From: an uncultured Bacteroidales bacterium
GTDB lineage: Bacteria > Bacteroidota > Bacteroidia > Bacteroidales > UBA10428
Reading direction: 5' to 3'
Length of the DNA stretch: 64,000 nucleotides
NCBI GenBank assembly: GCA_963800645.1
Contig: CAWDBX010000011.1
Coordinates: 139,503-203,502 of the forward strand
In this document: positions 23,649 through 39,336 of the stretch, piece after piece
Position numbering within the stretch: the first letter of the stretch is position 1
Layout: every line of letters begins with the position of its first letter
Made by a program: the position numbers and the translations under genes
Notes under the pieces: model-generated
Databases searched by the model: none
Told to the model about the DNA's origin: nothing
Seen by the model: the letters and a program-made list of their open reading frames with translations, nothing else

Positions 23649-23793
23649 GAGATTCAATAATCCAAATTTAATAAAGAATAATACTGGCAGCAATTCAACT
23701 CTTAATTCGCTTACATTTCGGTACTTTAGCGCTTTTTAGGATATAAACATAATACATACATTGCCGATAAAGCCGCATGAGCGGCAAGTTAAG

Positions 23794-23867
23794 TCGGGGT
23801 GGTGTGACTCGAACACACGACCTCCTGGTCCCAAACCAGGAACGCTAACCAACTGCGCTACACCCCG
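23794..23867 (-). tRNA. tRNA-Pro (UGG)
   Basis: CGGGGTG acceptor stem, CCTGG-TT-TGG-GA-CCAGG anticodon arm, GTTCGAGTC T-loop. Confidence 0.97.
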
Positions 23868-24067
23868 ATACAACAATATAAAGAACTCGACCGATCCAAA
23901 CCAGGAACCCCGCCTCTGGCGGGGCTACACCCCGATAAACAATATAAAGAACTCGACCGATCCAAACCAGGAACCCCGCCTCTGGCGGGGCTACACCCCG
24001 ATACAACAATATAAAGAACTCGACCGATCCAAACCAGGAACCCCGCCTCTGGCGGGGCTACACCCCG
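23868..24067 (-). repeat. Three tandem 66-67 bp repeats derived from the tRNA-Pro 5' half
   Basis: Units 23868-23934, 23935-24000 and 24001-24067 each contain CGGGGTGTAGC and GTTCCTGGTTTGG identical to the tRNA. Confidence 0.95.
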
Positions 24068-24083
24068 ACAATATAAAAAGAAC

Positions 24084-24434
24084 TTATGTCGAATAGGATC
24101 GTATCATTCCCAAAAGCATCTTGGAGATTTGTTCATAACTGTCGTAAAACTCCTTAAAGACTGCTTCTTCTATAAATCCCAAATCATTAACTGCTTCAAG
24201 GATCGCTACCGACTCGAAAACACTTCCCCGAGCAATGGTCAGATAATGCTTCTTATCGGTATTGGTCATTCTTCCGGTGCCCTCGGCCAGATTTAGCATG
24301 ATGCTTAAACTCGACCGTTTCCACTGATCTTTCAGATATGCGTCCAGTGTGGCATGGTTGAAAATAAATTTCAAGACTTTGGAATTATTCACTCTAATCA
24401 CCTGATATACATCAAGCTTCTCAAAATCAAACAT
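24084..24434 (-). CDS. Four-helix bundle protein (23S rRNA intervening-sequence protein family)
   Basis: FEKLDVYQ, DQWKRSSLSIMLNLAEG, IARGSVFE. Confidence 0.9.
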   Translation of the reverse strand: MFDFEKLDVYQVIRVNNSKVLKFIFNHATLDAYLKDQWKRSSLSIMLNLAEGTGRMTNTDKKHYLTIARGSVFESVAILEAVNDLGFIEEAVFKEFYDSYEQISKMLLGMIRSYST

Positions 24435-24745
24435 TTATTTCAATTATTTCTATATGAATTTTATTCCAAACACACGCTTATACGACCAAACCAATTTCAA
24501 TGAGCACTTCTTTTTTTCCGGTGCGAATATAATAATTTATCCTGACGATCAGTTATGTTTTTTAGCCGGTATCCAATTAACCGGTTCTTAAAATATGCAG
24601 CAATGCTTGTAAGTAACAATATTTAATATTATTAAGGATATTTTGATTAGTTTATTTTTTCTTATTGTCCATTTCGATAGGCATCTGAAGCTATGAATCG
24701 TTTCAGTGCCGCAGAATCTATGTTTCATTTAAATCTCAGTAAATT

Positions 24746-25306
24746 ATGAAAAGAGTACTTTTTCTTATTTTAACTATGGTATTGCTTCCCTTTGCCATTC
24801 ATGCGCAGCTTGGCATAGGAGTAGGCATCAAAGCCGGAGCAAATTTTGCCAATCAGGCTGTTGAAGATATCGATACCAAATCAGTGACCGACTATCATGT
24901 CGGGGCATATGTTAATTTAAATCTGTCTGAAAAATTCGGGATCACTCCTGAGGTGCTTTATACCGCATACGGAAGTGAATGGGAAGATTTAAAAGTTGAT
25001 TATGATTATATTGCCATACCTGTGATGGTAAGGTTCAAACCTATCAAACTGATTAGTCTGGAAGCAGGACCACAGTTCAGTTTTCTGACAAAAGCCGAGG
25101 TTGAAGGTATTGGCGATGTCAAGGATGATTTAAAGAATAACGATTTTGGTCTGGCTTTCGGAGCCGGTGTGCACCTGCCATTTGGAATCAATGCCGGTGC
25201 CAGGTATGTTCTTGGCTTCACCAATATCTCAGAGGTATCGGAAGTTGAGATTAAGAACCGTACGTTTCAGATCTATGTGGGGTGGACGATCCTGGGTGCA
25301 AAATAA
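24746..25306 (+). CDS. Outer-membrane beta-barrel (porin/PorT-like) protein
   Basis: Signal peptide, GIKAGANFA, YIAIPV, EAGPQFSFL, GARYVLG. Confidence 0.85.
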   Translation: MKRVLFLILTMVLLPFAIHAQLGIGVGIKAGANFANQAVEDIDTKSVTDYHVGAYVNLNLSEKFGITPEVLYTAYGSEWEDLKVDYDYIAIPVMVRFKPIKLISLEAGPQFSFLTKAEVEGIGDVKDDLKNNDFGLAFGAGVHLPFGINAGARYVLGFTNISEVSEVEIKNRTFQIYVGWTILGAK

Positions 25307-25352
25307 AACCTTTGCATTAAAACTGCTCCAGACTAGTCTGAAGGTGTCTTAT

Positions 25353-25386
25353 AAAAAAAACCTCACCAATGGGTGAGGTTTTTTTT
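25353..25386. terminator. Bidirectional terminator at the distal end of the cassette array
   Basis: A-run, ACCTCACC-AATG-GGTGAGGT stem-loop, T-run. Confidence 0.85.
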
Positions 25387-25561
25387 ATTTGGAATCGTGG
25401 AATTATGTGAGGTCCCGGCTCTGCAGGACCTCACCTGGAGCAATGACCCAGGTAAATTCACGGCCAGCAATGTGCACATGATGCTATGCTGCCATGCATT
25501 TGTTAATTTTGTCCATTTGGGATGCCATTATTAGGAAGTTCTGTTTACCTGGTTCGATAAA

Positions 25562-25756
25562 CTACTTATTATCCTTTTCTTTTAACCATTGGAAAAACCG
25601 GGTCAATGCAACACCCAATGACATTCCTAATGCCAAAATAAGCCAAAATCCAGCATGATTTGGTTTACTCTCAATTCTGGAATAAAAAACTAAAAAAAGG
25701 CTAATGGTAATTACCATTGGAAGCAATACGGTTGATAATCCTTTTCTCTTTGTCAT
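25562..25756 (-). CDS. Small two-TM hypothetical protein
   Basis: 64-aa ORF with two hydrophobic segments. Confidence 0.65.
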   Translation of the reverse strand: MTKRKGLSTVLLPMVITISLFLVFYSRIESKPNHAGFWLILALGMSLGVALTRFFQWLKEKDNK

Positions 25757-25905
25757 GATTTTTGCTTTTAATTATAGGTGTTTAGAAATCTAAGGCGTAT
25801 ATTCAAATGTATATACTCTGATTTCGTCATTCTTTGTTTTTGCGTGCAGTTCAAAACCCGGATGCCGCAATGGCTTAACCACACTGTTGAAATCCGTAAT
25901 GATCT

Positions 25906-26136
25906 TTAACCAAGTCTTACCAATAGAAAACAAAGTATTAGGACTGCTATAAATCCAATTACTTGATTCACAAGATTATGTCCCATCAAATCAAACAAAT
26001 CATCTGAGTTATCGGGTCCGTTTAAATATTCTCTGAAGGTAAATTTCTTTTTTCTGGCTATTGACCTCCAAATTGTTCCATAGGTCCATCTTACTATGGC
26101 ACCTGCAAAATTGAAAATATAACCACCAACGCCCAT
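25906..26136 (-). CDS. Small membrane hypothetical protein
   Basis: 76-aa ORF followed directly by an attC-like end (GCAATGGCTTAACCACACTGTTG at 25867-25889). Confidence 0.65.
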   Translation of the reverse strand: MGVGGYIFNFAGAIVRWTYGTIWRSIARKKKFTFREYLNGPDNSDDLFDLMGHNLVNQVIGFIAVLILCFLLVRLG

Positions 26137-26216
26137 ATAGCCTATTTAAGGAGTTGGATGATTAATCGAACCATAATCTGCCACGAATTATATGTTATAA
26201 CTAGCCAGGGTACCTT

Positions 26217-26315
26217 CATTCTTAATGGATTATACACGTCGCAGCTGTGCAGTCGTGCATTGAATAGAATATTTGCTTTGAGTTCGGTACAAGCGGTATG
26301 CACGTTGTTGTGGCC
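26217..26315. repeat. attC-like site (degenerate left arm)
   Basis: Ends in GTTGTGGCC just beyond the DJ-1 stop codon. Confidence 0.55.
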
Positions 26316-26323
26316 AGTGCCTA

Positions 26324-26908
26324 TTATTTTTTATTAAAACCCAGTAATTGACCAACCTTAACAGCATTATTCCTTGTTGTCAAAAGCTCCAGTAATAATA
26401 AGGCAACATCTACCGCTGTTGATGGATTCCAGGATGTAATCATATTATCATCCATTACAATAGGTTGATCTATCACATTAACGCCAAATCCTTGCAATGC
26501 TTCCCGGCGAATAGCTCTATGATATGTTGTTCCATTTTTGCCTTTTAAAACGCCGCTCTTTCCCAAAGGTAAAGCTCCAACACAAATAGATGCAATAATC
26601 TTATGTTTAGCTTTAAAACCTCGAATTAAATCAAGAAATCTATCCTCATAAGCATCATTATAAAATCCATACACCTCAAATCCACCAGGAATAGCTAATG
26701 CATCAAATGAGCCAATATCAACATCATCTATTAAATAGTCGACGATAAACCTTTGATTAAAAGAACTTTTAATTTCCTTTTTTAATCCGCAAGTAAATAA
26801 TTCTGTAGAACAATCACCTTCCACAAGATTCCAGCCAATCACATCAATAAATGCACTTGCTTCAAATGTTTCAAATCCATCCGCTAATAACAATAATACT
26901 TTTTTCAT
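26324..26908 (-). CDS. DJ-1/PfpI family protein
   Basis: LLLADGFETFE, DALAIPGG, ASICVGA nucleophile elbow. Confidence 0.92.
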   Translation of the reverse strand: MKKVLLLLADGFETFEASAFIDVIGWNLVEGDCSTELFTCGLKKEIKSSFNQRFIVDYLIDDVDIGSFDALAIPGGFEVYGFYNDAYEDRFLDLIRGFKAKHKIIASICVGALPLGKSGVLKGKNGTTYHRAIRREALQGFGVNVIDQPIVMDDNMITSWNPSTAVDVALLLLELLTTRNNAVKVGQLLGFNKK

Positions 26909-26950
26909 ATTAAATCAGATTATGTTCTTGCAACAATGTCGTTTTTAATG

Positions 26951-27082
26951 GGCCACAACCCTCGCATGGTTGACCCGGTTGCGTGGCAAATCAGATACCG
27001 TATCTGGCAGCACCGAGGCAACGCAAAGAGCTGGCATTCGCAAACAGTCAGCCGGCAATGGGTTATGCGCACTGTCAGCGGT
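26951..27082. repeat. attC-like hairpin site
   Basis: GGCCACAAC..CGCAT..TGACCC..TTGC pairs with GCAATGGGTTATGCG..GTCAGCGGT. Confidence 0.7.
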
Positions 27083-27093
27083 AGCCGTATTTT

Positions 27094-27879
27094 TTATTTA
27101 TTTGTAACAACTAAAATGCTGTTAATTATTTGGTCGTAAAGGTTTGCAGAAAGCTCGAGATATCTGTTGGTCGATACCTTATCTTTGTATTCTATTGCAT
27201 TCCAGGATCCTTCCAGACCAAAGCACCATGCTTTACTTGCACTGAAAATAAGTTGCTGTTCTGACAGGCTGAAGTTTTCCAGGGGTATAATGTCGTTATG
27301 GTAACAGTTGTCGATAGGATCCGAACCATAAAGATTATCCTGGGCTTTATTAAAAAAATCTGCCCAAAATTCATTTCCTTGTTTAGCTGCAAATTCAGCT
27401 ATATACCATAAAGCAGCGCCTAATTGCTTTTTAACTGTCTCAACTTCAAGACTCTTCCTAACAATTGGATGTTTTTTAAATTGTTGCCTGTAAATAACAT
27501 AAAAAAACTTTTCGCTTAATGAATACGGATAATAATAATATTTAGGTGTCCAATGTTTAATATGATCATTAAAAACAGTTTCAAGTCTCCAATCTCCTCC
27601 TCCACCGATTAACCCTTCCGAAAAATGATCCGGCTTAACAGCATTATTCTCGGTATGCATAAAGTGAGCACTTACTTTTAGACAGCCTTCAGTTTTTAGA
27701 TATTTAAACCATTCAACCGGATTATTGGCCACGTCTAATTTATTATGATCTATAAAAGAAACGGATTCACAATTTGCAAAGCATTTCTTATTAAAAAAAT
27801 CAGGGCAAAGCTTGTTGTTAATCAAATAATCATTTGCATAGGTAACTATGGATATTATTTGGGCCAATTTTTCATTCAT
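27094..27879 (-). CDS. Hypothetical protein (261 aa)
   Basis: Long ORF with AWCFGLEGSWN motif; family not assigned. Confidence 0.75.
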   Translation of the reverse strand: MNEKLAQIISIVTYANDYLINNKLCPDFFNKKCFANCESVSFIDHNKLDVANNPVEWFKYLKTEGCLKVSAHFMHTENNAVKPDHFSEGLIGGGGDWRLETVFNDHIKHWTPKYYYYPYSLSEKFFYVIYRQQFKKHPIVRKSLEVETVKKQLGAALWYIAEFAAKQGNEFWADFFNKAQDNLYGSDPIDNCYHNDIIPLENFSLSEQQLIFSASKAWCFGLEGSWNAIEYKDKVSTNRYLELSANLYDQIINSILVVTNK

Positions 27880-27912
27880 TCTGGCTGTAAATTTTCAGGA
27901 TTATTAATTATT

Positions 27913-28043
27913 GTTCCTTAAAGTCCGCGGGCATGAGCCCTTGCGATGCAATGATGATTACTTTTCCAGGTACAACAGGGTAACCCAAAGTACTTGCATC
28001 GCAAACAATAGACCAGCAATGGGTTAAACACATTGTTAGCAGT
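27913..28043. repeat. attC-like hairpin site
   Basis: Ends GCAATGGGTTAAACACATTGTTAGCAGT; internal perfect inverted repeat TTGCGATGCAA/TTGCATCGCAA. Confidence 0.7.
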
Positions 28044-28064
28044 TCGCTGCTGTTCGAGTCAATT

Positions 28065-28439
28065 TTAGTACATCCATTTTGCATCATTCTCTTGTACATC
28101 CTTAATTCTATAAGCTGCAATTTTATGGATAAGTGATTTTGGGAGTGGTTCATGGTAAGGAAATTGAATCGTGTCTTTACCTGTTGTAAACTTTTCCAAT
28201 TCTTCCCTGAATGGTTCCATAGCAGGACCAGTTGGCATAAAGTTTAAATGTGATTTATATGCTGCGTAGGAGAAAAGAATTCTTTTTTCCATAAACACAG
28301 GAATTCCCCACTTTAGCATCTCTGTAGCATTGGGGGCAACTTTTTTCAGAATGGAGCGAATTTCCCTTAATTTCTCCTTAGCATTTTCGGGAGCAGCATT
28401 TATATACTCTTCAACATCAGTTGGTTTTGTCTTGGTCAT
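28065..28439 (-). CDS. DUF1801 (YdhG-like) protein
   Basis: DVEEYI, LKWGIPVF, YAAYKSH, GKDTIQFPY..PLP. Confidence 0.88.
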   Translation of the reverse strand: MTKTKPTDVEEYINAAPENAKEKLREIRSILKKVAPNATEMLKWGIPVFMEKRILFSYAAYKSHLNFMPTGPAMEPFREELEKFTTGKDTIQFPYHEPLPKSLIHKIAAYRIKDVQENDAKWMY

Positions 28440-28444
28440 AAATT

Positions 28445-28819
28445 TCAAATTTTAATGAGGTCCTGTGGATGCTTTAAACTTCGTGAAAGGCCACCCCGGC
28501 AACAATGAAAACCTGAATCAGCAGTTTTCTCTACATATACTAACCAGAGCCCATTACTATTGCGAAAATCAATATCCTCCTCGAAAGTGTACTTTAAGCA
28601 TATAGTATCTAAACCATAATCTCCCTTAAATTTTTCAAATATTCTGAATGTAGCGGTCTCATCCGTTGAATCTACTGAAATGAGCTCTCCAAGGAATATT
28701 AAGTTGGATTTATCCATGCTGAATTCCTGCAAATCTTCGATTCTATCAAATGGTTCATTTGCATGAAGCAAGATGGGATTGACAATAAAAACTGAAATAT
28801 AAAAAACAATGCTTTTCAT
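28445..28819 (-). CDS. Secreted hypothetical protein, possibly truncated
   Basis: Signal-like N-terminus; runs into the DUF1801 start with no intervening site. Confidence 0.55.
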   Translation of the reverse strand: MKSIVFYISVFIVNPILLHANEPFDRIEDLQEFSMDKSNLIFLGELISVDSTDETATFRIFEKFKGDYGLDTICLKYTFEEDIDFRNSNGLWLVYVEKTADSGFHCCRGGLSRSLKHPQDLIKI

Positions 28820-28922
28820 GTGTAAGATTTTATGCCTGGCGCTGTTAGGTGCTGTTTTTTATTTTTCTGTTTGTAAAAGTTGTTTCGTTTTTTTTGAATT
28901 GTTTGGAAAATTTTGGTTCCCT

Positions 28923-29273
28923 TTACTTTCTTAAAATCTTCTCCATTGTCTTTCCTTTTGCCAATTCGTCAATCAGCTTATCTAAATAACGAATTTTTTG
29001 CATGAGTTTGTCTTCGATTTCTTCCACACGATAGCCACAAATTACACCGGTAATTTTTGAAACATTTTGATTCATTTGTGGTGCCTGTGTGAAAAAGGTC
29101 TCAAAATTATTGTTTTTATCAATTTGCTGCTGCAAGGATTGTTGATTGTATCCTGTGAGCCAACAAATGATGGCATCTACTTCTGCCTTTGTGCGTCCTT
29201 TTTTCTCCGCTTTTAGTATATATAACGGATAGACACTTGCAAATGATGTTGTATAAATTCTTGGTTTTTCCAT
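28923..29273 (-). CDS. DUF2200 family protein
   Basis: [57 protein letters not shown]. Confidence 0.9.
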
Positions 29274-29379
29274 AGTTCTTTATTTACTATAACAAATAAC
29301 AATTTAGTCAATCCATTTTCTGCAAAAAACTCCTGAAAATTGGCTGCTGGGTATTTTTTGTCTTACCTTATCTCAACCA

Positions 29380-29650
29380 ATTAGTCAATATAGTATCCCA
29401 ATTATCGCCATAAAAAAGCTTGCAATAAGATGAAATGCAAAAGCCGGTAATATACTTTTGCTTTTATATACTACAAATGCTTATGTAATACTCCCCACAA
29501 TTAAAACAGGAAATAACCAAAACTGAAATGTATGATATAATGCAAATAAAATAACCTTTGTTTTATTGTAATATTTTCAGTACAAAGCCTTTCAACAAAT
29601 GAAGTATTTAGTTTTTTCGATTCAAAATAATATAAACAAACGCCAATTTT
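29380..29650 (-). pseudogene. CPBP/CAAX-protease family remnant (C-terminal part)
   Basis: Minus-strand translation FALYHTFQFWLFPVLIVGSIT*AFVVYKSKSILPAFAFHLIAS with an internal stop. Confidence 0.6.
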
Positions 29651-29686
29651 TAATTTCTAATGAATCGATTAATGAAATTTTTTCAT

Positions 29687-29810
29687 GGTAGTCAATGGTC
29701 GGAGTAATGGCCAGTAAGGAACTACGGATGATTTCATACTGGATACTAAGAAAAGTTTAAGTGGTTAAAATCCTGCGAATACAGGTGAAGAAAAATATTT
29801 AGTTGTATAG
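29687..29810. repeat. attC-like site, near-duplicate of 30742-30872
   Basis: Shares GGCCAGT.AGGAAC.ACGGATGATTTC, GATACTAAGA, AGTGGTTAAAAT and TGCGAATACAGGTGAA. Confidence 0.7.
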
Positions 29811-30468
29811 TTGAAGTTCTAAGAGAAGGCATTAATCAGGAAGTTGTACGGTTATTCTCATAAATGATTTTACGAAGATTTGGCGAGTAGAGATGAAGTC
29901 TAAATAAAAGCATATTCAAGAAGATGCGAAGATGTAAGTTGAAATAATGAATTGAATATATAAAAAAAGGCATATAATCAGGAATTGTAATGGTTATTAT
30001 CAGTAAATGGTCTATATCTTTTCGGTCTTATACCTTTTTTTTCCAGGCTCCTACTGTTCTTTTTTCGCTTCTCCGCTCTCCTTCATGTATCATATAAGAT
30101 TGTTCGTCAGCTACTCGCCAACTTTAAGGTTTGAATAATCAAATTGAAGATGATAACTTTTCGCATTTTTTTTAATACTTAGTATTTCCTGATAATATTT
30201 CATTTTTTGGTTTGCGATTTTGCACCTTTTCACACTTTGGCAGTAGCCATTTAATGGTAGAATAACCTAACAATGAATATACTAATAACCTTATTCAGAT
30301 TTAGAATTTTTGTAATTTTATATAATAGCAGACTGTAATCCATAAACTATCACTGGTAAAAAATGACGTTAATGAACTATTCAGGTTTAAAAGAAAAAGA
30401 AACAGTCCTTTATGGAGTTGAGAATTGACATTTTACAGTTTCTGCTTCCGCTTCTCCAAAGATGGAAT

Positions 30469-30693
30469 TTAAATCGCAGCAAACACTCTGACATAATCAA
30501 TTATAACAAAGATCAATAGCATTACTGAAGCCACGAGTCCCCACATAAGTACCTTTGGATAACCATTATTTACCAGAAATGGTAATACAAATCTGAATCC
30601 GATAAAAGCAAATGAACTTGGCAAAAGAAATGCCAATAAAATCCTGAATATTGATAATTGCTTACTGTTGCTCCATTCAAACAAGGGTTTCAT
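30469..30693 (-). pseudogene. Truncated membrane protein, probably the N-terminus of a CPBP-family cassette gene
   Basis: 74-aa two-TM ORF; its upstream leader is duplicated at ~29650 ahead of the CPBP remnant. Confidence 0.5.
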
Positions 30694-30741
30694 GTTTTTT
30701 TAATTTCTAATGAATCGATTTTTTACTGAAATTATTTACAT

Positions 30742-30872
30742 GGCAGCCAATGGTAGGCGTTATAGGCCAGTTAGGAACCACGGATGATTTCGATACTAAG
30801 AGAAGTTGTAGTGGTTAAAATAGTGCGAATACAGGTGAAACACCCTGATAGGCTATTCTGCAGGTTGTACAC
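30742..30872. repeat. attC-like hairpin site
   Basis: GCAGCCAAT..ATAGGCCAGTTAGG pairs with CCTGATAGGCTAT..GTTGTACAC, 9 nt from the channel stop codon. Confidence 0.7.
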
Positions 30873-30881
30873 TGGCCTTAT

Positions 30882-31733
30882 TTAGTTCTTTTTTAAACTT
30901 TTAATTTCATTATTTAAATCATCTAATCGGGTAATAATATGCTTATAAAGCTCATCTGTATTCTTATCTTTATACTTAATCTCATTAAGTTCCTGAGATA
31001 ATTCTTTTTGGCTTTCTTCCATGCTATTCATGATTACACCAATAAATAGATTCATGATAATCATGGCTCCAATTAATATAAAACTTGCAAAATACAAAAA
31101 AGGCCATAACGATACTATCTGCTGATTTTCATTATTTATGGGCCCAAAAATATGCACATTCATAATATCGGTCCAACCTTCGAGCGTTAACACTTTGAAG
31201 AGGGTAACAAAAGTATGGTGCAAATCACCAAAATGCATTGGGTCTGTCTTTCCAAAAACAAATACACCTACAATTGCATAGACATAAAAAAGTATTCCAA
31301 TAAGCATTATTACATAACCCATTGATGGAATGCTTTTAAGCAATGCACTGATTATTAACTTTAATTTAGGAAAAACAGTTATCATTCGAAAAATTCGCAA
31401 AACCCTTAATATTCGAAAAACAGCAAAATAGTGAGTATCGTTGAATGGAATAAGACAAATAGCTACAATTATGAAATCAAAAACATTCCATGGGTCTGAA
31501 AAATAAATCCATGGTCGTTTGCCATTTGCAATTATTTTTAAGGCTATTTCAATAGTAAAACAGGTGATAATAAACTTGTCGATTGAAGACAGAACAACCT
31601 GATATTTTTTTGCCAGTCCGGGATATGTTTCTAACCCGATAATAACTGCAGATAGAAGGATAAGTGAAAAAAGAAAATAATTAAAGAATCTGCTATTTAC
31701 TATCTTTTTGACTATTTCTGAAAACCTGTTCAT
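30882..31733 (-). CDS. Bacterial voltage-gated sodium channel (BacNav-type ion transporter)
   Basis: WNVFDFIIV (S3), RILRVLRIFR (S4), TLEGW filter, NLFIGVI (S6), coiled-coil tail. Confidence 0.9.
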   Translation of the reverse strand: MNRFSEIVKKIVNSRFFNYFLFSLILLSAVIIGLETYPGLAKKYQVVLSSIDKFIITCFTIEIALKIIANGKRPWIYFSDPWNVFDFIIVAICLIPFNDTHYFAVFRILRVLRIFRMITVFPKLKLIISALLKSIPSMGYVIMLIGILFYVYAIVGVFVFGKTDPMHFGDLHHTFVTLFKVLTLEGWTDIMNVHIFGPINNENQQIVSLWPFLYFASFILIGAMIIMNLFIGVIMNSMEESQKELSQELNEIKYKDKNTDELYKHIITRLDDLNNEIKSLKKN

Positions 31734-32363
31734 GATTTTTTAATTTTTGAAAACATAATTTTCAGCATGGGCAACGAAGCAATAACAATAAAAATGAATA
31801 AAATATAAATTGAATATTTCATAACATCCGGATATGCTTTTCCAACATAGTAGCCTAAAGGCACCAATGTACAAACCCAGGTTATTGCGCCGAAAAGATT
31901 AAACAACAAGAACTTTTTAAATTTAAAATCAGTTGCCCCCGCAATCATTGGCACCAAAGTACGGATAACAGGCATAAAGCGACCTAAAATGAATGCCCAC
32001 ATTCCAAAACGGGTGTAAAAACTGCTTCCACGTTCAAGGTATTCTTTTTTAAAGAACCGGGACTTATTATCGGTAAACAGTTTTTCGCCTAACCATTTTC
32101 CTTTAAAATACCCGGTAAAATCACCCATAAACGATGCTATAACTAATAATATCAGAAGCAACGGCCAATGGCAATTCCAAATAATGGGTTCCACAGAACA
32201 TACCGGCTGCAAACAGTAAATAATCGCCGCCCGGCAAAACAAATCCAAGAAAAAACCCTGTTTCAATATAAACAATTGCCAAAATAAGAATCAAACCTCC
32301 ATATTCGATAATGTGATGGGCATCAAAAATAAATTTCCCAAAATTGCTTTCCAATAAAATCAT
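31730..32363 (-). CDS. DedA family protein (one indel)
   Basis: YIETGFFLGFVLPGGDYLLFAAG and GRFMPVIRTLVPMIAG in two frames. Confidence 0.88.
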
Positions 32364-32742
32364 ATCCTGCTTTATTTGTTTTTAAATTTAAATGAAATGA
32401 AAATGTTTCCCGAAATTATTGTGGCGATAAAAAAAGTGACCATTCGATGGGTATTTTATAAAAATCAATCAGAATCATTTTAATGCCGACAAAACCACCT
32501 GCTTCCCTTTTGATAAAATCTTCTGAGAAAAAGGCGATTTACTCAAACAACTGAATAGTTTTTTTCATAACTTAACGTGAAAAGGCATCTTAAATTTACC
32601 TCGACAACATAGAAAAATCAACTGATAATTATTCATGCAGTAAAAGAAAGAAGGGGATTTTATTGAAATTATTTAAAACAGCCTATTAATAATCAACCTA
32701 TTATTTTCCCAGGACACTATTTCTAACCAAAAACAACAAAGT

Positions 32743-33679
32743 ATGAAAACAAAAATTGCTTTGCTCTTGTCAGTAATTTTACTTACACTTTTTTCATGTA
32801 CGGAAAATAATCCGGAAGTACTCCTTCCTGTGGATGATAGTCCTATTTTCATGGATATCTCATCCTATTACAGCCCTGCGAATCTCAAGTCAACATTAAC
32901 TGGTGGGTTACCTGATAACATTGCTGTTCTCAAGGCCGAATACCTTACAACTGCTGAATCAGGTAAGATTGGACGTACCGTTTATTTTGTCAATGTAGGC
33001 AATAAGCAGCTCGATGCAGATTTTGTACCAGATCTTTCACTGGATGGTACTACTGATGTATCCTATTATATTGATGAAAACAGACCTTCATTGGACCTTC
33101 CCCTGGCATTGTCATCAGGTGCAATACAACAAGCCATGGAAACCTGGGATGGAATAACTTGCTCAGATTTAGGAATGTATCAGATTCCATATTCAAATGA
33201 AATAAATAGTGGGTTTATATCTTATTATATTCGGATATGGTGGGAGTCCTGACTATATTTCGGATGTAACTTTTTGTGGATGGATGCCTGCTGGTTTTTT
33301 CGACATCCTGGCTTCAGACGGAAGCACATATATTCTGGGTGTTACATTCACCCTTATATTCGTTGACGATGACGGAACGCCAACCGATTACGATAATAAC
33401 AAAAAGTATGATGTAGCCTGGCGCGAAATATACTTTAATGATAATTTTCTATGGAGAAATGGAGCGACTTATGATATAGAAACCGTTGCCCTTCACGAAG
33501 CCGGTCATGGCCTTAGCCAGGGCCACTTTGGAAAAGCCTTCCGCGATGCAGGTACAGGTTATTTGCATTTTAGCCCGCGTGCAGTTATGAATGCTGCTTA
33601 TTCAGGTATTCAGACAGAGATTACAAAAACGGACGAAGCCGGACATTGCAGTATTTGGGCAGATTGGCCTATACATTAA
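32743..33679 (+). CDS. Metzincin/matrixin-like metalloprotease lipoprotein (one indel)
   Basis: Lipobox LFSC; DIETVALHEAGHGLSQGH and Met-turn AVMNA. Confidence 0.8.
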
Positions 33680-33859
33680 ATTTTTCAAGCATACCAGTAC
33701 ATCCGGTTTTCCAAATACGAACTTTAATGGCACAAGTTTTTTGTGCCATTTTTTTCATATTTATTTTGACAATTGATTTATCAACAAAAATTGTTGGTTA
33801 TACCCTATTTAAACTCTTCCATTCCAAATTATCCTTTTGAGTATCACTCGTTCGAAATT

Positions 33860-34164
33860 ACTGCCAACGTTCGCGTGTATGCCGATCCAATTGTTTATTT
33901 CTTACCATTTTAAACGTTTCAATCGCAAGAGTACTTAAACTAAGGAGATCCAATGTAAATTTCATTAGGCATTATACCGGGAATCAGTATATTTTCTCCG
34001 GAATAAAGTGATTGCAAAAAGGTGTCACCTTTTAGGACGATCTTCTTTCAAATGCACTTACTTATCAAGGTACACCCGGGTAACCAAAAGTGATGACCCA
34101 AGCAAATCCTCTGCCAGCAACCTGCCTGCCGGCAGGCAGGTGGGTTATACATACTGTTAGTGAC
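33860..34164. repeat. Long attC-like site containing a 20-bp palindrome insertion
   Basis: ACTGCCAACGTTCGCGTGTATGCC ... GGGTTATACATACTGTTAGTGAC. Confidence 0.7.
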
Positions 34165-34174
34165 TTGCAGATTT

Positions 34175-34966
34175 TCAATTTATTAGCTTTAATTCTCTTA
34201 AAATATCTTTGGTTATCTCGTATCGCGCCTGACTCAACTTGTTAAAATCATTTGTCTTAAAATTCATGGCATAAAAATACGGTTTATCGCCTTTCTCCAG
34301 GTATCCAACTAACCACATGATGTAATCAGTCTCAGTCAACATTCCACCACCAGTTTTACCACTTAGTTTGAATGTGTCAGATTGCTCAAGCACTATCATT
34401 TTTTTTATTATGTCAACGGATTTTCTTGCTACGGGCAACTCGTAATGATAAAATCTTCTCAAAAAATCGACCTGTTGATTAGCGCTTATTCTAAATAATC
34501 CGGCTAACCAAAATCGTGAAGGAGGTCCAGTTAAGTTTTTATTCCCGTAATCAAATGCTTTTACATATTCGTAATATTTATCAATTCCAATTTGTTCTGC
34601 AAATCCTACAAATGCCCAAACGCACGAATTATTTATGGCTGTTCTTAATGTCTGATCTTGATTCCAGGTGCCATTTGGCCATTCGTGGCCATCCCATTTA
34701 ATGATCTGATTAGTATCTTTGATAATACCTTCTTCCAATGCTATCAATGAATTAGGAATTTTAAAAGTTGAAGCAGGAATGTATCCGGAATCGCATATAC
34801 TTGTATTATATTTCACAAATTCATTGTCTGATTGGTTGAATAATACAAAGCAACCCTCAACGCCATATCTGGCAAATTGTGATTTGAAATCCTTCTCTAT
34901 CACTCTTTGAGAGAATCCTATCTGAGAAATCAATACACCTGTAATGATGTGAAAAATCTGTTTCAT
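34175..34966 (-). CDS. Class D (OXA-type) beta-lactamase family protein
   Basis: PASTFK (SxxK), SCV (SxV), YGN, FWL and GKTG motifs with a signal peptide. Confidence 0.9.
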   Translation of the reverse strand: MKQIFHIITGVLISQIGFSQRVIEKDFKSQFARYGVEGCFVLFNQSDNEFVKYNTSICDSGYIPASTFKIPNSLIALEEGIIKDTNQIIKWDGHEWPNGTWNQDQTLRTAINNSCVWAFVGFAEQIGIDKYYEYVKAFDYGNKNLTGPPSRFWLAGLFRISANQQVDFLRRFYHYELPVARKSVDIIKKMIVLEQSDTFKLSGKTGGGMLTETDYIMWLVGYLEKGDKPYFYAMNFKTNDFNKLSQARYEITKDILRELKLIN

Positions 34967-35003
34967 TGTTGTTATCTGGTTGTAGGTGTTTTTTTTACAG
35001 CTT

Positions 35004-35135
35004 GTCACTATGTTTTCGCATGTGGCCAGTAAGGGATTGTGCGCTTTTTGCCTATCAAAACACCCGGAAATTGATTCGGGTGATGACCTACGAATACTTC
35101 TGAAATCTTTATTGGCTATACCGCTTGTTAGCTGT
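35004..35135. repeat. attC-like hairpin site
   Basis: TGTGGCCAGTAAGGGA pairs with TCTTTATTGGCTATA; ends GTTAGCTGT 11 nt from a stop codon. Confidence 0.72.
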
Positions 35136-35146
35136 AGCCCATTTTA

Positions 35147-35893
35147 TTAATAATTCAATTCTTTTCCTTTTAAATATGCGATTTCAAGATATTTTTTCCT
35201 TGTCTCAGGACTAACTGATAAAATCGAATGAAAATAAACATGGTCAACTTGTCCAATGCCCGGGTATTTCAGTCCCCAGTCGTCAATTAATTTTTCCATG
35301 GCATCTTTAAAACCTTTTTCCCTGTACACTTTTTCGTTAAAAAAAGCAGGATGCATGATAACCGCTTTTTTAATTTTAAGCAGAGGTATCCGCCCGTCAG
35401 GATCTCCCCGCCAGCCCTTGTCATTCAGCTTGTAGGCGAATCCATAAGTCAGGACTCTTTCCATCCAGCCTTTCAGCAACGCCGGAAAGTGCAGCCAGAA
35501 AACCTGCGTGATAAAAACCAGTACATCCGCTTCGGCCACTTTCTTTTGTTGCAATAAAACATCTTTTGGCTTTTGGGATTGGATCAGCTTGATGAGTTCA
35601 TCATCGGTTTTGTTTTTAATATACCATTTTGCAACGAGCCGCCTGACCGGTCCGCCGGCAAGTTTGATAATCGTGCCCCTCATGTCCATTTGCTGAAAAA
35701 TGTCTTTGGGAATATCTTTATCCACAAAGAATGCGAAATCCCTATCCTGAAAGACGGGGTTGAACTTTGTTTTGTACAAATCAACAATTTCATACTTATG
35801 TCCTGCTTCCTTAATGCCTCTTACAAAATTGTCAAGTACTGCTTTTGTAAAGGACAATGGATTCGGATGTGCGAAAATGATTAGTACTTTCAT
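35147..35893 (-). CDS. NAD(P)H-dependent oxidoreductase, flavodoxin-like fold
   Basis: IIFAHPNPLSFT, DLY..FNPV, FPALLKGWMERV. Confidence 0.9.
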   Translation of the reverse strand: MKVLIIFAHPNPLSFTKAVLDNFVRGIKEAGHKYEIVDLYKTKFNPVFQDRDFAFFVDKDIPKDIFQQMDMRGTIIKLAGGPVRRLVAKWYIKNKTDDELIKLIQSQKPKDVLLQQKKVAEADVLVFITQVFWLHFPALLKGWMERVLTYGFAYKLNDKGWRGDPDGRIPLLKIKKAVIMHPAFFNEKVYREKGFKDAMEKLIDDWGLKYPGIGQVDHVYFHSILSVSPETRKKYLEIAYLKGKELNY

Positions 35894-35904
35894 AGTTGTC
35901 ACTT

Positions 35905-36474
35905 TTAAAAGGTTATATATCTATTCACTCTTTTTATGTATTGTCTGTATTCTTCACCATATTGAGAACTTAAGAACTGCTCTTCCTTGATCATAATAAA
36001 ATGGTGGATGATCCATGTACCAATGAATGCCATGATATTTAAATAATGAGGATTGAAAAGACAGGACGAGAACAGGATGAATATAAATCCTAAATAGAAT
36101 GGATGCCGGCTTATCGAATAAATACCATTTGTCTGTAATTGGTGAGTTTCAGAAGAAGATAAACCGAAAACCAGATCTTTATTCAGCTTAATGGTAGAAA
36201 GAAATAGTATGACAGCTCCAATAATTAAAAAGACCAACGCAATTATGTCAATGAAATTACTGGGAACAAAAAGTCTCATAACAGTTACGTTTAGTCCTTT
36301 TAGAAGCAGAAATGTCAGGTTTATAAGTACCAGTGTTTTTGCGAGAAGAAAATAAAAAACTGGAACAGGGGGGCGTCCGAAAATTTGTTGTTTCTTGATG
36401 ATTGCTCTGCCAATAACGGCTGTTATCAACATAATTAACAACATTGAAATAATTAAAACCATTGTTGAAATCAT
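35905..36474 (-). CDS. Isoprenylcysteine carboxyl methyltransferase family membrane protein
   Basis: LQTNGIYSISRHPFYLG, EEQFL..YGEEY..Y..RV.RY. Confidence 0.88.
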   Translation of the reverse strand: MISTMVLIISMLLIMLITAVIGRAIIKKQQIFGRPPVPVFYFLLAKTLVLINLTFLLLKGLNVTVMRLFVPSNFIDIIALVFLIIGAVILFLSTIKLNKDLVFGLSSSETHQLQTNGIYSISRHPFYLGFIFILFSSCLFNPHYLNIMAFIGTWIIHHFIMIKEEQFLSSQYGEEYRQYIKRVNRYITF

Positions 36475-36545
36475 ATCGCTTTATTATTAATGTTTAACCT
36501 AAGTCATGTTCATTCTTCCTGAGTTACAGTGCTGGGTACAGTGCA

Positions 36546-37181
36546 TTATTCCTTTTTCATAACTACATAAGCCAATGGAAATCTACCTTCAATCTTCAAT
36601 GCTTTTTTAATAAGCAGGCCATTGTTTGTCAACATACTTTTAAAACTTTCTATACTCCACTTATTGACAATTCTAAATCCAAAAAAAACTCTGCCAACAA
36701 CATCAATAATCCTGCTTTTAATATTTTCTCCAACGCAAAATGTCGGGACTATAAAAACTCCACCATCTTTCATGACTCGCTTAGCCTCCTTTACAGGTTT
36801 CGCCGGATCATAAAGCAAGTGTAACAAGTTGGATGCTATTACTATATCGAAGCTTTTATCAGCGAAACTCAAATGATATGAATCTTGAATTTGAAAATCA
36901 ATATTCTTGATATTGGTTTCTTCTTGCTTTTGCTTTGCGATACGAATCATCTCTGGAGATAGATCTGTTGCAATAATCGATGATACTTTTGAGCAAATAG
37001 AAAAGGATATCATTCCAGTACCTGTTCCTATCTCAAGCACAATGTCATTTGCTTTAAGCTCCAAATCAATATTTTCAAGAATTGAGCTATAAGTTTTACA
37101 AAACATGTCATTTATGAAGGAATCATAATTGACTGCCAGTTTATCCCAAAGCTTCTTTTCCTTTTCCTGTCTATTATCCAT
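36546..37181 (-). CDS. Class I SAM-dependent methyltransferase
   Basis: VLEIGTGTG, DLSPEM, SFDIV. Confidence 0.9.
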   Translation of the reverse strand: MDNRQEKEKKLWDKLAVNYDSFINDMFCKTYSSILENIDLELKANDIVLEIGTGTGMISFSICSKVSSIIATDLSPEMIRIAKQKQEETNIKNIDFQIQDSYHLSFADKSFDIVIASNLLHLLYDPAKPVKEAKRVMKDGGVFIVPTFCVGENIKSRIIDVVGRVFFGFRIVNKWSIESFKSMLTNNGLLIKKALKIEGRFPLAYVVMKKE

Positions 37182-37214
37182 GTTACTAATGTATTTCTTG
37201 CAGTTTTTTTACAT

Positions 37215-37485
37215 TGTACCCAACGCCCGCGTGTAAATGCCGTTGCGCCTGCCTGCCTGCCGGCAGGTTGCCAATGTGATTACTTACCTGGATACACCCA
37301 GGCAACCAGGAGAACTGACCAACGTAACCGACTGAAGGGAGCTCGTGTAGCGAAGCGGAGTACCTGAAAAAGTCACTATGAATGAAAAAAATCGGACTCG
37401 CCCTTGTCCCCGCCGCTGGCGGGGCCGTTCGTGGACAACCTCCCCGCATGGCTGGCTTTGAATAAATTTGGTGCTTGTTATCGGG
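37215..37485. repeat. First (array-proximal) attC-like site, with palindrome insertions
   Basis: TGTACCCAACGCCCGCGTGTA.. left arm like 33860; internal TGACC motif; candidate right end GTTATCGGG. Confidence 0.6.
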
Positions 37486-38114
37486 GCTCATCCGGTTACT
37501 TTAAAAATCATTCACAACATACAAATAATCAGCATTTACCTAAAGAAGCACCTTTCTTAACATGATTCGATACTCCCCCTTGTGCTCAATTTTGCTGACA
37601 CTAACTTTTGATTTCATGACCAATTGCTTATTTCAATTCAAATGGGTGCGATAAACCCACCGCTATCCAATGACTTGATCATGAATGAATGGGTACATTT
37701 TTATAAACTTATTGCCACTGAACTTTTGAATGCCAGTTCTTTCATTAACTGCTATTACTTAAAAATAATTGAACAATCAAAAAATGTAATCTATCTGGGA
37801 GGAATTATGATCAGAGAATAAATAATAAAAGACGGCTTCGCCATGCTCACTCACAGCTAGTAAGAACCAATCATGCAAAAAAGCGATGCCATATCCTCTG
37901 TTTAAATAATCTGCATTCGGGCCACACGTTTTGCATCACCTAACTTCTGCTTTCCCTTATAAAAATAATAAAAAATCAGTTCGAAGTTTTTGCCGTCATG
38001 AAATAGTTAGCCCAATGTGAAAAACCGTTTGCTGGTTAAAAGATTTCCGGATGAATGCGGGTTGAAATGTTAACCAAAAACGAAATGTAAGGGCAGTTAA
38101 CGGGGATCGGACAT

Positions 38115-38537
<423 letters not shown>

Positions 38538-38568
38538 ATAAGCTGAAAACGTATTTTTCAAAGTCCGA

Positions 38569-38576
38569 CAAAAGTA
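38569..38576 (-). promoter_or_regulatory. Bacteroidota -7 element for tRNA-Ser
   Basis: TACTTTTG on the minus strand ~30 nt upstream of the tRNA. Confidence 0.6.
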
Positions 38577-38736
38577 TAAAATCTGATTGCAATAGCCAAA
38601 GAATCTGATCAAAATGTTTGTACGACCGCATAGGTTATGAATCCGAAGGTTTCCTGCATGTTCAAATTGACAGGCTTCATTTTTATAATCGCTATTGTCT
38701 ATCTTTGAACTTTATACATTTCTTGACCACAATATC

Positions 38737-39336
38737 ATGAGTGAATTTGATGCCCGTGCCCGGGAATGGGACAATGATCGGATGCACATGGACAGATCGG
38801 TTGCCATTGCTGCAATTCTCAAAAAGCGAATACCGGCTGACCGGTCTCTTTATGCGCTGGAATACGGTGCAGGTACAGGAATTTTAAGTTTCCTTTTGCG
38901 GGACATGTTCGCGGGAATTGTACTCATGGACAGTTCGAAGGAAATGATCAGGGTGTGTGAAGAAAAGGCCGCCTATTTTCAGACCGGCCATATAAAACCA
39001 TTGTGGTTCGACCTGGAGCATAACGATTATCACGGAAAATTCGATATGATATTCACCCAGATGGTATTGCATCACGTGAATAATGTGGACGCCATTTTAA
39101 ACAAGTTCTATCTCCTGTTAAATCCCGGAGGTGTTCTGGCCATTGCGGACCTGTGTCCGGAAGACGGATCATTCCATGGCCCTGATGCAAAGGTTCACTT
39201 AGGTTTTGATCCTGCTTTGCTGCTGGATAAACTTGTTCAGCTGGGATTCACTCATGGTGAATCCCAAATCTGTTTTAACGTAAAGCGCCCCACAGGACGG
39301 GATTATCCGGTATTTCTGCTGACTGCTGTAAAGTGA
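38737..39336 (+). CDS. Class I SAM-dependent methyltransferase
   Basis: FDARAREWD, LEYGAGTG, MVLHHV, EDGSFH. Confidence 0.88.
   Translation: MSEFDARAREWDNDRMHMDRSVAIAAILKKRIPADRSLYALEYGAGTGILSFLLRDMFAGIVLMDSSKEMIRVCEEKAAYFQTGHIKPLWFDLEHNDYHGKFDMIFTQMVLHHVNNVDAILNKFYLLLNPGGVLAIADLCPEDGSFHGPDAKVHLGFDPALLLDKLVQLGFTHGESQICFNVKRPTGRDYPVFLLTAVK

Follow-up and report, generated by a model that had tools for sequence, protein, structure and literature searches.

Within a 64,000-nucleotide stretch of the genome of an uncultured Bacteroidales bacterium (hereafter, the window, corresponding to C11:139503-203502 of a 4.46-Mb assembly in 15 contigs that is 72.5% complete), an AT-rich segment between two tRNA genes had been described in a first-pass annotation as an integron-like cassette array. 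It is very probable that this segment is a decayed cassette array from which the integrase gene has been deleted, that is, a cluster of attC sites lacking integron-integrases (CALIN) that arose by integrase loss. The sites of the family to which it belongs are structured, the cassettes are modular at a GTT crossover, the arrays vary between species, tyrosine recombinase genes stand at the array heads, and this locus has lost its own. The recombinase family found next to such arrays in related genomes is, to judge from its position, probably the cassette recombinase. More tentatively, we suggest that the window could be a dead member of an undescribed integron lineage of the Bacteroidota, in which attC arrays would be run by a Xer/IntI-like recombinase without the IntI-specific domain and with N-terminal alpha/beta domains, the gene usually lying upstream of the cassettes in the same orientation, with the insertion site just past its own stop codon. 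The comparisons reported below concern the window's own genome (contigs C3, C7, C9, C10, and C11) and 61 relatives (designated by G numbers); the genus is represented by 35 genomes. SusC-type and OMP domains, as well as the taxa in which relatives of the recombinase occur, are consistent with an origin in the Bacteroidota.

The GC content is between 0.307 and 0.398 in the 1-kb bins from 24001 to 38000, compared to 0.439 and 0.454 in the neighboring bins, and the stretch is bounded by tRNA-Ser(gct) (38448 to 38537), which anchors it upstream, and by tRNA-Pro(tgg) (23793 to 23867), beyond its distal end, both on the minus strand and both recognized by ARAGORN and Rfam. These two tRNAs are the only matches in the window to Rfam at the gathering threshold. 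All but one of the genes of the stretch are on the minus strand, and their Pfam and NCBIfam families are mixed, so that both the AT richness and the single-strand run of unrelated cargo reported in the first-pass annotation are confirmed. In the related genome G029, a tRNA-Pro(tgg) gene on the minus strand is followed after about 2 kb by tRNA-Ser(gct), a tyrosine recombinase gene, and a cassette array, all on the plus strand; in the window, the array lies between the same two tRNAs, with tRNA-Ser at its head. The position of tRNA-Pro, located by ARAGORN and blastn 2 kb from tRNA-Ser(gct) in G029, marks the two loci as orthologous. Furthermore, the window is collinear by blastn with G029 from 38618 to 37568, i.e., from tRNA-Ser to just past the recombinase start, with matches at 38618 to 38124 (76% identity) and 37659 to 37568 (76% identity, E of 2e-11).

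At this point of the window, a 5' stub of the tyrosine recombinase gene is present (37555 to 37617, minus strand), whose 21 codons match residues 1 to 21 of the G029 recombinase in tblastn (67% identity); it translates as MKSKVSVSKIEHKGEYRIMLRKVLL, and its frame stops at codon 26. The stub and the collinearity with G029 together indicate that the gene was once present and was deleted along with the 5' half of the first site. Thus, the recombinase was not encoded elsewhere, as had been supposed, but sat at the head of this array beside tRNA-Ser. No tyrosine recombinase ORF (open reading frame) other than the stub occurs in the window, and neither tblastn nor hidden Markov model (HMM) searches found an intact array recombinase in the assembly, whose only two PF00589 genes, located on C9 and C7, are Xer-like and whose best match to the IntI model TIGR02249 reaches 80.5 bits, against a cutoff of 265.

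A BLAST comparison of 12 intergenic stretches of the window with its own genome returned many matches on one strand of C10 between 70 and 125 kb and others at C3:59-66 kb. At C10:60-127 kb, 77 of the 84 nonoverlapping ORFs of at least 80 amino acids are on the minus strand, and the intergenic sequences could be read as a short run past the stop codon, ..YTAAC, the box GTGTATAAGCC, a variable center, a complementary box, and ..CGTTRG. With nhmmer profiles of the two half-sites, 42 of 62 matches to the 5' half and 38 of 51 matches to the 3' half fell on C10, nearly all of them within 61 to 125 kb, and 5 and 4, respectively, fell on C3; the window array gave three weak 5' matches and one weak 3' match, and two further stray weak matches were found on C11. 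A scan for the motif YTRACM-N4-8-WTARCC was abandoned as too loose, as it gave 86 matches across all the large contigs. The half-site profiles were replaced by two covariance models, with alignment A1 omitting 2 of 34 paired sites (C3 63964 and C10 97993). Detection of attC sites in this work relies on these family-specific models and not on the attC model of IntegronFinder. Model R1 was built from 12 uninterrupted type-A sites of 127 to 128 nucleotides, and model R2 was built from 19 type-C sites of five genomes (the window's own, G030, G001, G013, and G016).

The two models describe hairpins under strong covariation. The type-A consensus has 20 pairs, 8 of which show compensatory changes among the 12 sites, and the type-C consensus has 21 pairs, 13 of them with compensatory changes; in the latter set, 96.0% of the cells are paired versus 75.4% in shuffles, the covariation score of 0.507 (versus 0.129) was matched by none of 500 shuffles, and controls with a slid register pair in only 26 to 44% of the cells. 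The AAC and GTT ends are invariant in 12/12 type-A and 19/19 type-C sites, with the terminal cores R'' and R' pairing to each other, and 12 of the 17 pairs of the type-C helix 2 (L''/L') are changed on both sides. The helix is interrupted by unpaired columns, corresponding to extrahelical bases, and an asymmetric spacer separates the outer boxes from the inner ones. When folded as single-stranded DNA, six of six C10 reference sites pair along the L-box helix, and three of these also close the R boxes (z from -1.2 to -5.5). The R1 scores in the C10 and C3 arrays range from 26 to 146 bits, the top eleven (111 to 146 bits) being seed sites and an intact type-A site outside the seed reaching 106 bits. 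The reference sites are structured recombination sites of the attC kind, about 130 nucleotides long.

In the window's own genome, C10:60000-127900 represents a much larger array, about 60 kb long, with some 40 attC sites in good condition (R1 up to 146 bits) and an end near a tRNA-Val gene, and C3:59000-66300 represents a third, small array near the contig end, with three R1 matches. A 393-amino-acid ORF upstream of the C10 array was ruled out as its recombinase, as it has no Pfam match, and the C3 contig end was ruled out as an integrase because it carries, by eye, a P-type-ATPase-like frame. Short GC-rich palindromic units, including those of the CCTGCCTGCCGGCAGGCAGG type and of the CTTCCCGACAAGTCGGGACAGG type, are nested in varied combinations in the loops of many attC sites, both in the window (34113 to 34140 and 37236 to 37262) and in C10, and one of them is also present singly on seven other contigs; they look like miniature insertion elements with a preference for attC loops.

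When R1 and R2 were run unfiltered on window positions 24000 to 39000, three full-length and two partial matches were obtained within 10.4 kb, and all the significant matches are intergenic and on the strand of the genes. Nine full sites had been proposed in the first-pass annotation; three of them are matched over their full length, all with broken pairs, two are partial or composite, and four are not significant. The best preserved is the type-A site (26953 to 27080, minus strand, as are all the sites that follow) located behind a family-less 261-amino-acid ORF (27094-27879, minus strand), which scores 48.1 bits with R1 (E of 4e-11), has 3 of 20 pairs broken, and keeps GTT, with R'' reading GAC. 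The type-A site of the DUF1801 cassette (27916 to 28041; R1, 66.7 bits; E of 6e-16) is also full length, with 5 of 20 pairs broken and TTT in place of GTT. The type-C site of the flavodoxin cassette (35006 to 35133; R2, 34.3 bits; E of 1e-8), which is 78% identical to C10:124430-124539 by blastn, has decayed, with 6 of 21 pairs broken, a replaced 3' end, and ATA at the core where GTT would stand.

The composite site at 33862 to 34162 (301 nucleotides; R1, 42.3 bits; E of 1e-9, with model positions 23 to 102 at 34012 to 34120; nhmmer half-sites with E of 0.03 and 0.11) consists of three pieces, namely, the 5' portion and center of a type-A attC that carries a palindromic insert, ORF remnants, and the 3' end of an attC with GTT intact. 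The remnants are two, each of 78 nucleotides, with an 88% blastn match to contig C3 of the same genome (L009:15790-16443), where an intact homologue of them is present in the C3 array. The second partial match, at 37215 to 37330 (R1, 22.8 bits; E of 2e-4, with model positions 38 to 98 at 37267 to 37327), corresponds to the 3' two-thirds of a type-A site that carries a small palindromic insert, in which the GTT of the R' core is intact at 37224 to 37222 and the 5' half (R''/L'') is gone; the R1 score of 9.6 bits at 37218 to 37248 is not significant.

The four remaining candidates, at 25790 to 25894, 26217 to 26315, 29687 to 29810, and 30742 to 30872, score under 10 bits (E of at least 0.4) with both models. 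Among the distal ones, 26217 to 26315 and 25790 to 25894, together with the remnant at 25431 to 25505, reach at most 9.4 bits (E of at least 0.5), and the folds obtained for distal sites have z values of -0.4 and -1.1. The site at 30742 to 30872, with E greater than 1 with both R1 and R2 and a core that reads ATT by eye, is assigned by its position as the degenerate attC of the ion-channel cassette, and the sequence at 29687 to 29815 is a partial paralogue of that region and of the leader downstream of it (81 to 83% identity by blastn within the window), which neither model matches significantly and which was rejected as a demonstrable attC. Overall, GTT is kept at 26953 to 27080, 33862 to 34162, and 37215 to 37330 and is replaced by TTT or ATA at two sites significant with the covariance models, and the cores read by eye at three other sites are ATT twice and CTT once. 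Among eight window sites folded as single-stranded DNA, seven fail to close, and the only one that closes end to end, 26953 to 27080, does so no better than shuffles (z of +0.7); the z of -3.1 obtained for 27916 to 28041 is owed to an internal stem. With three to six broken pairs in each full-length site, the window sites are homologous to real attC sites but damaged. Rather than the functional noncanonical class that had been claimed, they are decayed or truncated copies of canonical-looking sites found elsewhere in the genome. As for the half-sites and the remnant of the same annotation, the one at 36531 proved to be the stub, about 8 to 12 nucleotides long, of an attC start, whereas those at 28844 and 25431 to 25505 are plausible by eye only.

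The comparison with congeners reveals both the original cassette boundaries and the damage to them. A DNA search of the 35 genus genomes found single window cassettes dispersed at other loci, and three of them within one array of G030 (contig C3); the cassette order differs from that of G030, and the same cassettes recur elsewhere in the genus. The homology blocks begin or end within about 2 nucleotides of the core at 37225, 35010, and 27920, and in the case of the ion-channel cassette, compared with G010 and G026, homology ends at the AAC of R'' at 30864. The cassette encoding an S-adenosylmethionine-dependent methyltransferase (36546 to 37181, minus strand; Pfam Methyltransf_31/11/25 and blastn) corresponds, with 86% identity, to the second cassette behind the recombinase in G030. 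It starts identically in the two genomes (..C/GTTGGGTACAATG, with homology from 37225), and because the upstream sites differ between them, this boundary is the crossover. The G030 copy terminates in a complete type-A site; in the window, only the first bases of this site are still homologous, and at the junction 36529/36530 (36519 to 36545, minus strand), they are fused to the leader of the PEMT gene, a sequence that in G030 lies within a larger multigene unit. An illegitimate deletion at this junction accounts for the half-site at 36531.

The two-gene block that follows (35147 to 36474, minus strand), formed by a PEMT/ICMT-like methyltransferase gene (35905 to 36474) and a gene for a flavodoxin-like NAD(P)H oxidoreductase (Flavodoxin_2, 35147 to 35902), both recognized with Pfam, NCBIfam, and blastn, is 94% identical to G030:C3:2575-4000 in blastn. 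The coding sequence of the flavodoxin cassette shares this 94% identity, and the type-C site behind it is intact in G030, where it ends in ..GGCCATACCGCCAAACGTTAGCC; in the window, the last 20 or so nucleotides are replaced. Homology of the adjoining beta-lactamase cassette to the copy in G034 begins at 35010, about 2 nucleotides from the crossover position. Farther along, the segment at 28065 to 29273 (minus strand) comprises by Pfam DUF2200 (28923 to 29273), a family-less 124-amino-acid ORF (28445 to 28819), and DUF1801 (28065 to 28448). The DUF1801 block is 81% identical by blastn to G030:C3:14532-15071, and its homology to G030 ends at the core, at 27920, where G030 reads GGACGTT/GGG and the window reads GGACTTT/AAG, i.e., a G-to-T change at the crossover base followed by divergence. 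In the block encoding an ion-transport channel (Ion_trans, 30882 to 31733) and a DedA/VTT protein (31730 to 32363, in two overlapping frames), located at 30882 to 32363 on the minus strand, identified with Pfam, and 88% identical by blastn to G010:C22, the ion-channel gene is followed by a shared ..TACAAC and then by three different attC-like sequences in the window, G010, and G026, which supports 30742 to 30872 as the site of this cassette despite the failure of the models to match it. The integron-type layout of the array, which the first-pass annotation had recognized, is borne out; the site family is structured and covarying, and homology ends at the GTT crossover.

Matches were also found in sequencing runs. 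The best were contigs of wetland metagenomes, with at most 0.44 of the sampled words and with neither RNA nor raw reads among them. The contigs of four runs are collinear with the window across 25552-27510, 27863-29345, and 35444-36858; the parts that they leave uncovered carry no weight either way. One wetland contig joins 29773 to 30824, inside the two paralogous repeats, and lacks the intervening 1,050 nucleotides, including a 74-amino-acid ORF; this joint may stem from a homologous deletion, represent the ancestral arrangement, or result from collapse of the assembly. A second, weak joint from 28761 to 37229 was found in one contig, with 36 nucleotides on one side, at a likeness setting of 90%. 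Neither joint supports site-specific excision.

In related genomes, the position emptied in the window is occupied. Among the 13 loci of congeners and of genomes of the same order with at least 1.2 kb assembled downstream of the recombinase gene, this gene lies upstream of matches to the covariance models, and co-oriented with them, in 12, with R1 at G001, G029, G030, G023, G013, G016 (two loci), G028, G037, G035, and G041 and with R2 at G010. The runs of matches are long at G001, G029, G030, and G023, and the R1 matches at G035 and G041 are weak; the exception is G039, with no R1 match downstream (R1 only). The remaining recombinase loci end within about 0.7 kb downstream of the gene, as expected if repeats break assemblies. 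Overall, 26 of the 61 genomes carry a recombinase whose match covers no more than the first half of the IntI model, often a few hundred bases from a contig end. R1 sites occur in 26 of the 35 genus genomes (at least 89 in G029 and at least 71 in G013), and in 16/17 congeners with the recombinase versus 9/17 without it, a comparison in which kin are not independent. A canonical IntI above the TIGR02249 cutoff was found in 1 of the 61 relatives (G059) and in none of the 35 genomes of the genus, and G029 and G030, both 99% complete, lack IntI yet have at least 89 and at least 52 R1 matches, respectively.

When one genome per species was scanned, full-length relatives of the recombinase turned up across the Bacteroidota. 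In 12 of 30 loci from these other genomes, mostly of Bacteroidota, matches to the covariance models are present within 10 kb of the gene, and the 18 negative loci, scanned with models trained on the genus, include many with almost no flank. The matches are downstream and co-oriented in eight of these 12 loci (including those of Winogradskyella ursingii, Flavobacteriaceae S0862, Aquiflexum, and Pontibacter), downstream in the opposite orientation in one, and upstream and divergent in three (Psychroserpens, a Flavobacteriaceae record, and a metagenome-assembled genome [MAG] of Prolixibacteraceae). Moreover, the sequence past the recombinase stop codon is conserved, by eye, up to ..TATAA..AGTT or ..GTATAA..AATAGTT, 50 to 190 nucleotides from the stop, and diverges after GTT. 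This end point, read without statistics, was observed in 4/4 loci of the 371-amino-acid type and 2/2 loci of the 459-amino-acid type, and it is what would be expected of a candidate attI; in the window, the corresponding sequence is deleted.

At the head of some arrays, two different recombinase genes stand in tandem (371 and 440 amino acids at L038:12921-15540 in G013, 370 and 461 amino acids at L048:272-3001 in G032, and 278 and 379 amino acids at L039:9529-11706 in G016). The 278-amino-acid product is a simple tyrosine recombinase without the N-terminal domain, present in G016 in three identical copies in or beside arrays (L039:9529-10365, L040:2321-3157, and L040:7598-8434), one of which is followed by an ORF that we take to resemble an IS91-family transposase; this may represent a mobile element that inserts into arrays. 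In G001 (L030) and G028 (L045), the first cassettes downstream of the recombinase encode pairs of small proteins, the second of which begins, by eye, like a PIN-domain toxin.

The array-head recombinase has the Pfam domains Phage_int_SAM_4 and Phage_integrase, and its best NCBIfam models are NF040815 (XerA/"integron integrase"), with 216 to 232 bits against a cutoff of 220, and TIGR02249, matched in two stretches with 215 to 225 bits against a cutoff of 265. In an alignment with the true IntI of G059 (326 bits; same order, different family), which carries the signature insertion, 30 plus 12 residues are missing exactly at the IntI-specific domain. On the other hand, 95 to 260 extra residues are present at the N terminus, with the motif HKG..R....F.Y....WS...W..P conserved once or twice. 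AlphaFold models this N-terminal domain as beta-beta-alpha-beta-beta-alpha with a predicted local distance difference test (pLDDT) score of 83, compared to 85 for the whole protein, and its nearest folds, the N domains of T4 UvsW (Z of 6.8) and XPB (Z of 5.5 to 5.8), which bind DNA in a structure-specific manner, fall under the tool's level for a distinctive match and serve as a lead only. The full-length model matches XerA and IntI (VchIntIA 2A3V / IntI4) about equally, so that the two cannot be told apart by fold; in both sequence and fold, 2A3V ranks among the three best matches. In a quick LG+G4 tree of 39 tyrosine recombinases, made without bootstraps from rows picked by similarity to the query and with a small IntI sample, the 20 array-linked sequences form one group (Shimodaira-Hasegawa-like approximate likelihood ratio test [SH-aLRT], 89) nearer to other insertion-less enzymes, and the four IntI sequences with one Calditrichia sequence form a separate group (SH-aLRT, 100), outside of which the array-linked family falls. 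In public records, the proteins are named "tyrosine-type recombinase/integrase," "XerD," or with the generic NF040815 name. A tyrosine recombinase without the IntI-specific insertion heads other arrays of this kind, and since it is not a canonical IntI, the term "lineage-specific" used in the first-pass annotation has substance. The window locus itself, probably no longer active, is a fossil and not the best example of the system.

It is possible to hypothesize how the locus reached its present state. On the minus strand, tRNA-Ser(gct) would have been followed by the tyrosine recombinase gene, an insertion site past its stop codon, and co-oriented, promoter-poor cassettes, each ending in a hairpin site of about 130 nucleotides composed of R'' (..TAAC), L'', a variable loop, L', and R' (GTTRR..). 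If the system works as integrons do, the folded single-stranded sites would be cut at G/TT by the recombinase, and circular cassettes would be inserted at the site past the stop and excised between two sites, and the N-terminal domain may, speculatively, replace the IntI helix in reading the extrahelical bases. A deletion then took the recombinase after codon 21 and the 5' half of the first site. Once the enzyme was gone, the sites would drift and ordinary deletions would clip them, producing the TTT, ATA, and ATT cores, the broken pairs, the stubs, and the gene remnants. None of the steps of capture and excision would now be possible in cis in the window, where the array would be shrinking to a set of fixed genes; we infer that the cassettes were once mobilized by the recombinase and that the array has since become immobile.

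Several observations weigh against this reconstruction. The association of the recombinase with the arrays is one of position, and four of the nine proposed sites are not demonstrably derived from attC. No junction at a crossover core was found in the metagenome contigs of the four runs. In the C10 array too, only a stub of the recombinase gene is found upstream (C10:127883-127569, corresponding to residues 4 to 107 of the G001-type protein, with 54% identity and E of 8e-38, the remainder being absent), yet its sites are well preserved, which fits a copy acting in trans; moreover, as the assembly is 72.5% complete, an intact recombinase or an IntI could sit in the missing part and act in trans. 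In G029, the window, and two Flavobacteriales loci, the recombinase is preceded by a tRNA or transfer-messenger RNA (tmRNA) gene, and an island integrase targeting tRNA genes would look alike. The incompleteness of the assembly and the state of C10 are also what would favor a working lineage-specific system, with noncanonical sites served by a recombinase encoded elsewhere, as would the site at 26953 to 27080, which keeps GTT and can fold end to end. Such a system is nevertheless very unlikely, given that the cores are mutated in at least three sites, the stems are broken, the stubs derive from deletions that did not use the crossover, the orthologous sites are intact in G030, independent metagenome contigs are collinear across several sites, and tblastn and HMM searches of the assembly retrieved no intact recombinase. 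Still less credible is the absence of any cassette array, with the segment being an AT-rich, horizontally acquired island with dispersed intergenic repeats resembling repetitive extragenic palindromic (REP) sequences or miniature inverted-repeat transposable elements (MITEs). Small palindromic units do occur singly on seven other contigs, and the four nonsignificant sites would agree with it, but the model matches are limited to same-strand arrays and to positions just after stop codons, the half-site matches are concentrated on C10 (42/62 and 38/51), covariation supports one long hairpin with AAC/GTT ends, and homology between genomes breaks at the core.

A more serious alternative, though still unlikely, is that these are ordinary CALINs formed by a canonical IntI that either works in trans or was active formerly, with the recombinase a bystander, either a tRNA/tmRNA island integrase or a Xer-like enzyme. 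In G029, the window, L058, and L063, a tRNA-Ser, tmRNA, or tRNA-Met gene does lie 0.7 to 3 kb upstream of the recombinase, and a true IntI fragment exists in G059, of the same order (G059:C35, L010/L047, N-terminally truncated, with 248 amino acids covering model positions 73 to 315). Furthermore, the insertion that the recombinase lacks is described as necessary for integron recombination in PMC9668308 and PMC8138268. However, the 14.8-kb contig with the G059 IntI has no R1 or R2 match, and IntI above the cutoff is absent from all 35 genus genomes, though 26 of them have R1 matches. No tRNA adjoins the recombinase in 9 of the 13 loci scanned, and no direct repeat of tRNA-Ser of 12 nucleotides or more, as would mark the far border of an island, occurs on either strand of the window between 20000 and 38440. 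A bystander would also hardly head the array in 12 of 13 loci, lie within 10 kb of matches to the covariance models in 12 of 30 others, and be followed by post-stop homology ending, by eye, at GTT in 4/4 and 2/2 loci. Loss of the recombinase from a cassette array that it once served is therefore the reading that we retain.

The decayed array resembles several known systems. Cury et al. (2016, PMC4889954) proposed that CALINs arise by integrase loss and found that 15 of 279 had intI pseudogenes nearby. With at least two clustered attC sites, as detected with our own models, and no integrase nearby, the window falls within their definition, and it resembles them in its attC-bounded, co-oriented, unrelated cassettes without a working integrase; different from them, most of its sites are themselves decayed. 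Under the definition given in PMC4889954, the lost gene is not an IntI, because the intI_Cterm-type insertion is absent, and the adjacent intI with the additional domain that makes an integron complete is found neither in the window, where the gene is deleted, nor in the intact relatives, where the insertion is absent. The sedentary chromosomal integrons, e.g., the Vibrio superintegron (PMC8618304), are similar in having tens of cassettes with homogeneous attC sites (about 40 sites over about 60 kb in C10 and at least 89 R1 matches in G029), many small family-less ORFs, and, by eye, toxin-antitoxin-like first cassettes as in G001 and G028. They differ in that intI is classically divergent, whereas the recombinase is co-oriented in 12/12 positive congener loci; the divergent layout is shared by three Flavobacteriales and Prolixibacteraceae loci, and the recombinase family is different.

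Compared to IntI (TIGR02249; VchIntIA 2A3V), the array-linked recombinase shares a SAM-like core-binding domain, a catalytic domain, and the location beside attC arrays, but it scores under the 265-bit cutoff, lacks the insertion, has one or two extra N-terminal domains, and stands apart in the quick tree. The archaeal XerA (NF040815; 5HXY and 4A8E) provides the best NCBIfam and PDB matches (E of 1e-37) and has a catalytic domain without the insertion. XerA resolves chromosome dimers at dif; the array recombinase, in contrast, is N-terminally extended, occurs in multiple copies in certain genomes, and is associated with cassette arrays. In the Treponema denticola integron, intI is co-oriented with the cassettes, as in our loci, but that integrase keeps the IntI-specific domain, which the array recombinase lacks.

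Integrons are listed for the Bacteroidota in reviews (PMC8618304 and PMC9668308), and for the complete Bacteroidetes genomes analyzed with IntegronFinder 2.0, PMC9024848 gives only In0 elements and one complete integron, that of Salinibacter. In the full-text literature searched, largely outside subscription journals and supplements, we found no paper that ties Bacteroidota attC arrays to an insertion-less, N-terminally extended recombinase. On present evidence, the window locus is a decayed example of a kind already known, and the system from which it derives is an integron variant that may be undescribed. Taken alone, the window shows cassettes, including one with an OXA-like beta-lactamase gene, in the course of becoming fixed chromosomal genes. 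Both the definition of integrons and the searches for them depend on an integrase with a specific extra domain. If the arrays of well-formed attC sites in this phylum are served by a recombinase that lacks this domain and is N-terminally extended, standard pipelines would file them as integrase-less CALINs, the distribution of integrons would be undercounted, and part of the puzzle of CALINs without an integrase would be explained. In that case, the structural requirement for attC recognition would be directly testable in the cultured strains Winogradskyella ursingii HL4150, Psychroserpens sp. AS72, and Aquiflexum sp. TKW24L.

As regards the remaining features of the segment, the stretch between the recombinase stub and the first attC remnant (37386 to 37519, minus strand) is 87% identical by blastn to C10:102185-102318 of the same genome. 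The beta-lactamase cassette (34175 to 35008, minus strand) encodes a predicted OXA-like class D enzyme; it matches Pfam Transpeptidase with 131.8 bits (cutoff of 22.1) and NF012161 (bla_class_D_main) with 238.1 bits, below the NCBIfam cutoff of 250. The same cassette recurs at unrelated loci of at least nine congeners, with 72 to 86% DNA identity. The sole plus-strand gene (32743 to 33679) is represented by two overlapping ORFs of 169 and 156 amino acids, with a weak match, under the cutoff, to metallopeptidase M10 (Pfam E of 0.005). The distal end of the array (25419 to 26908, minus strand) comprises a DJ-1/PfpI gene recognized with Pfam (26324 to 26908) and small ORFs at 25906 to 26136 and 25562 to 25756. 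Finally, tandem repeats adjoin both tRNAs, with 3.2 copies of 67 nucleotides at tRNA-Pro (23857 to 24068) and 2.4 copies of 108 nucleotides at tRNA-Ser (38119 to 38361), and units related to them are found beside the same tRNAs in G029 and at many other positions in congeners.

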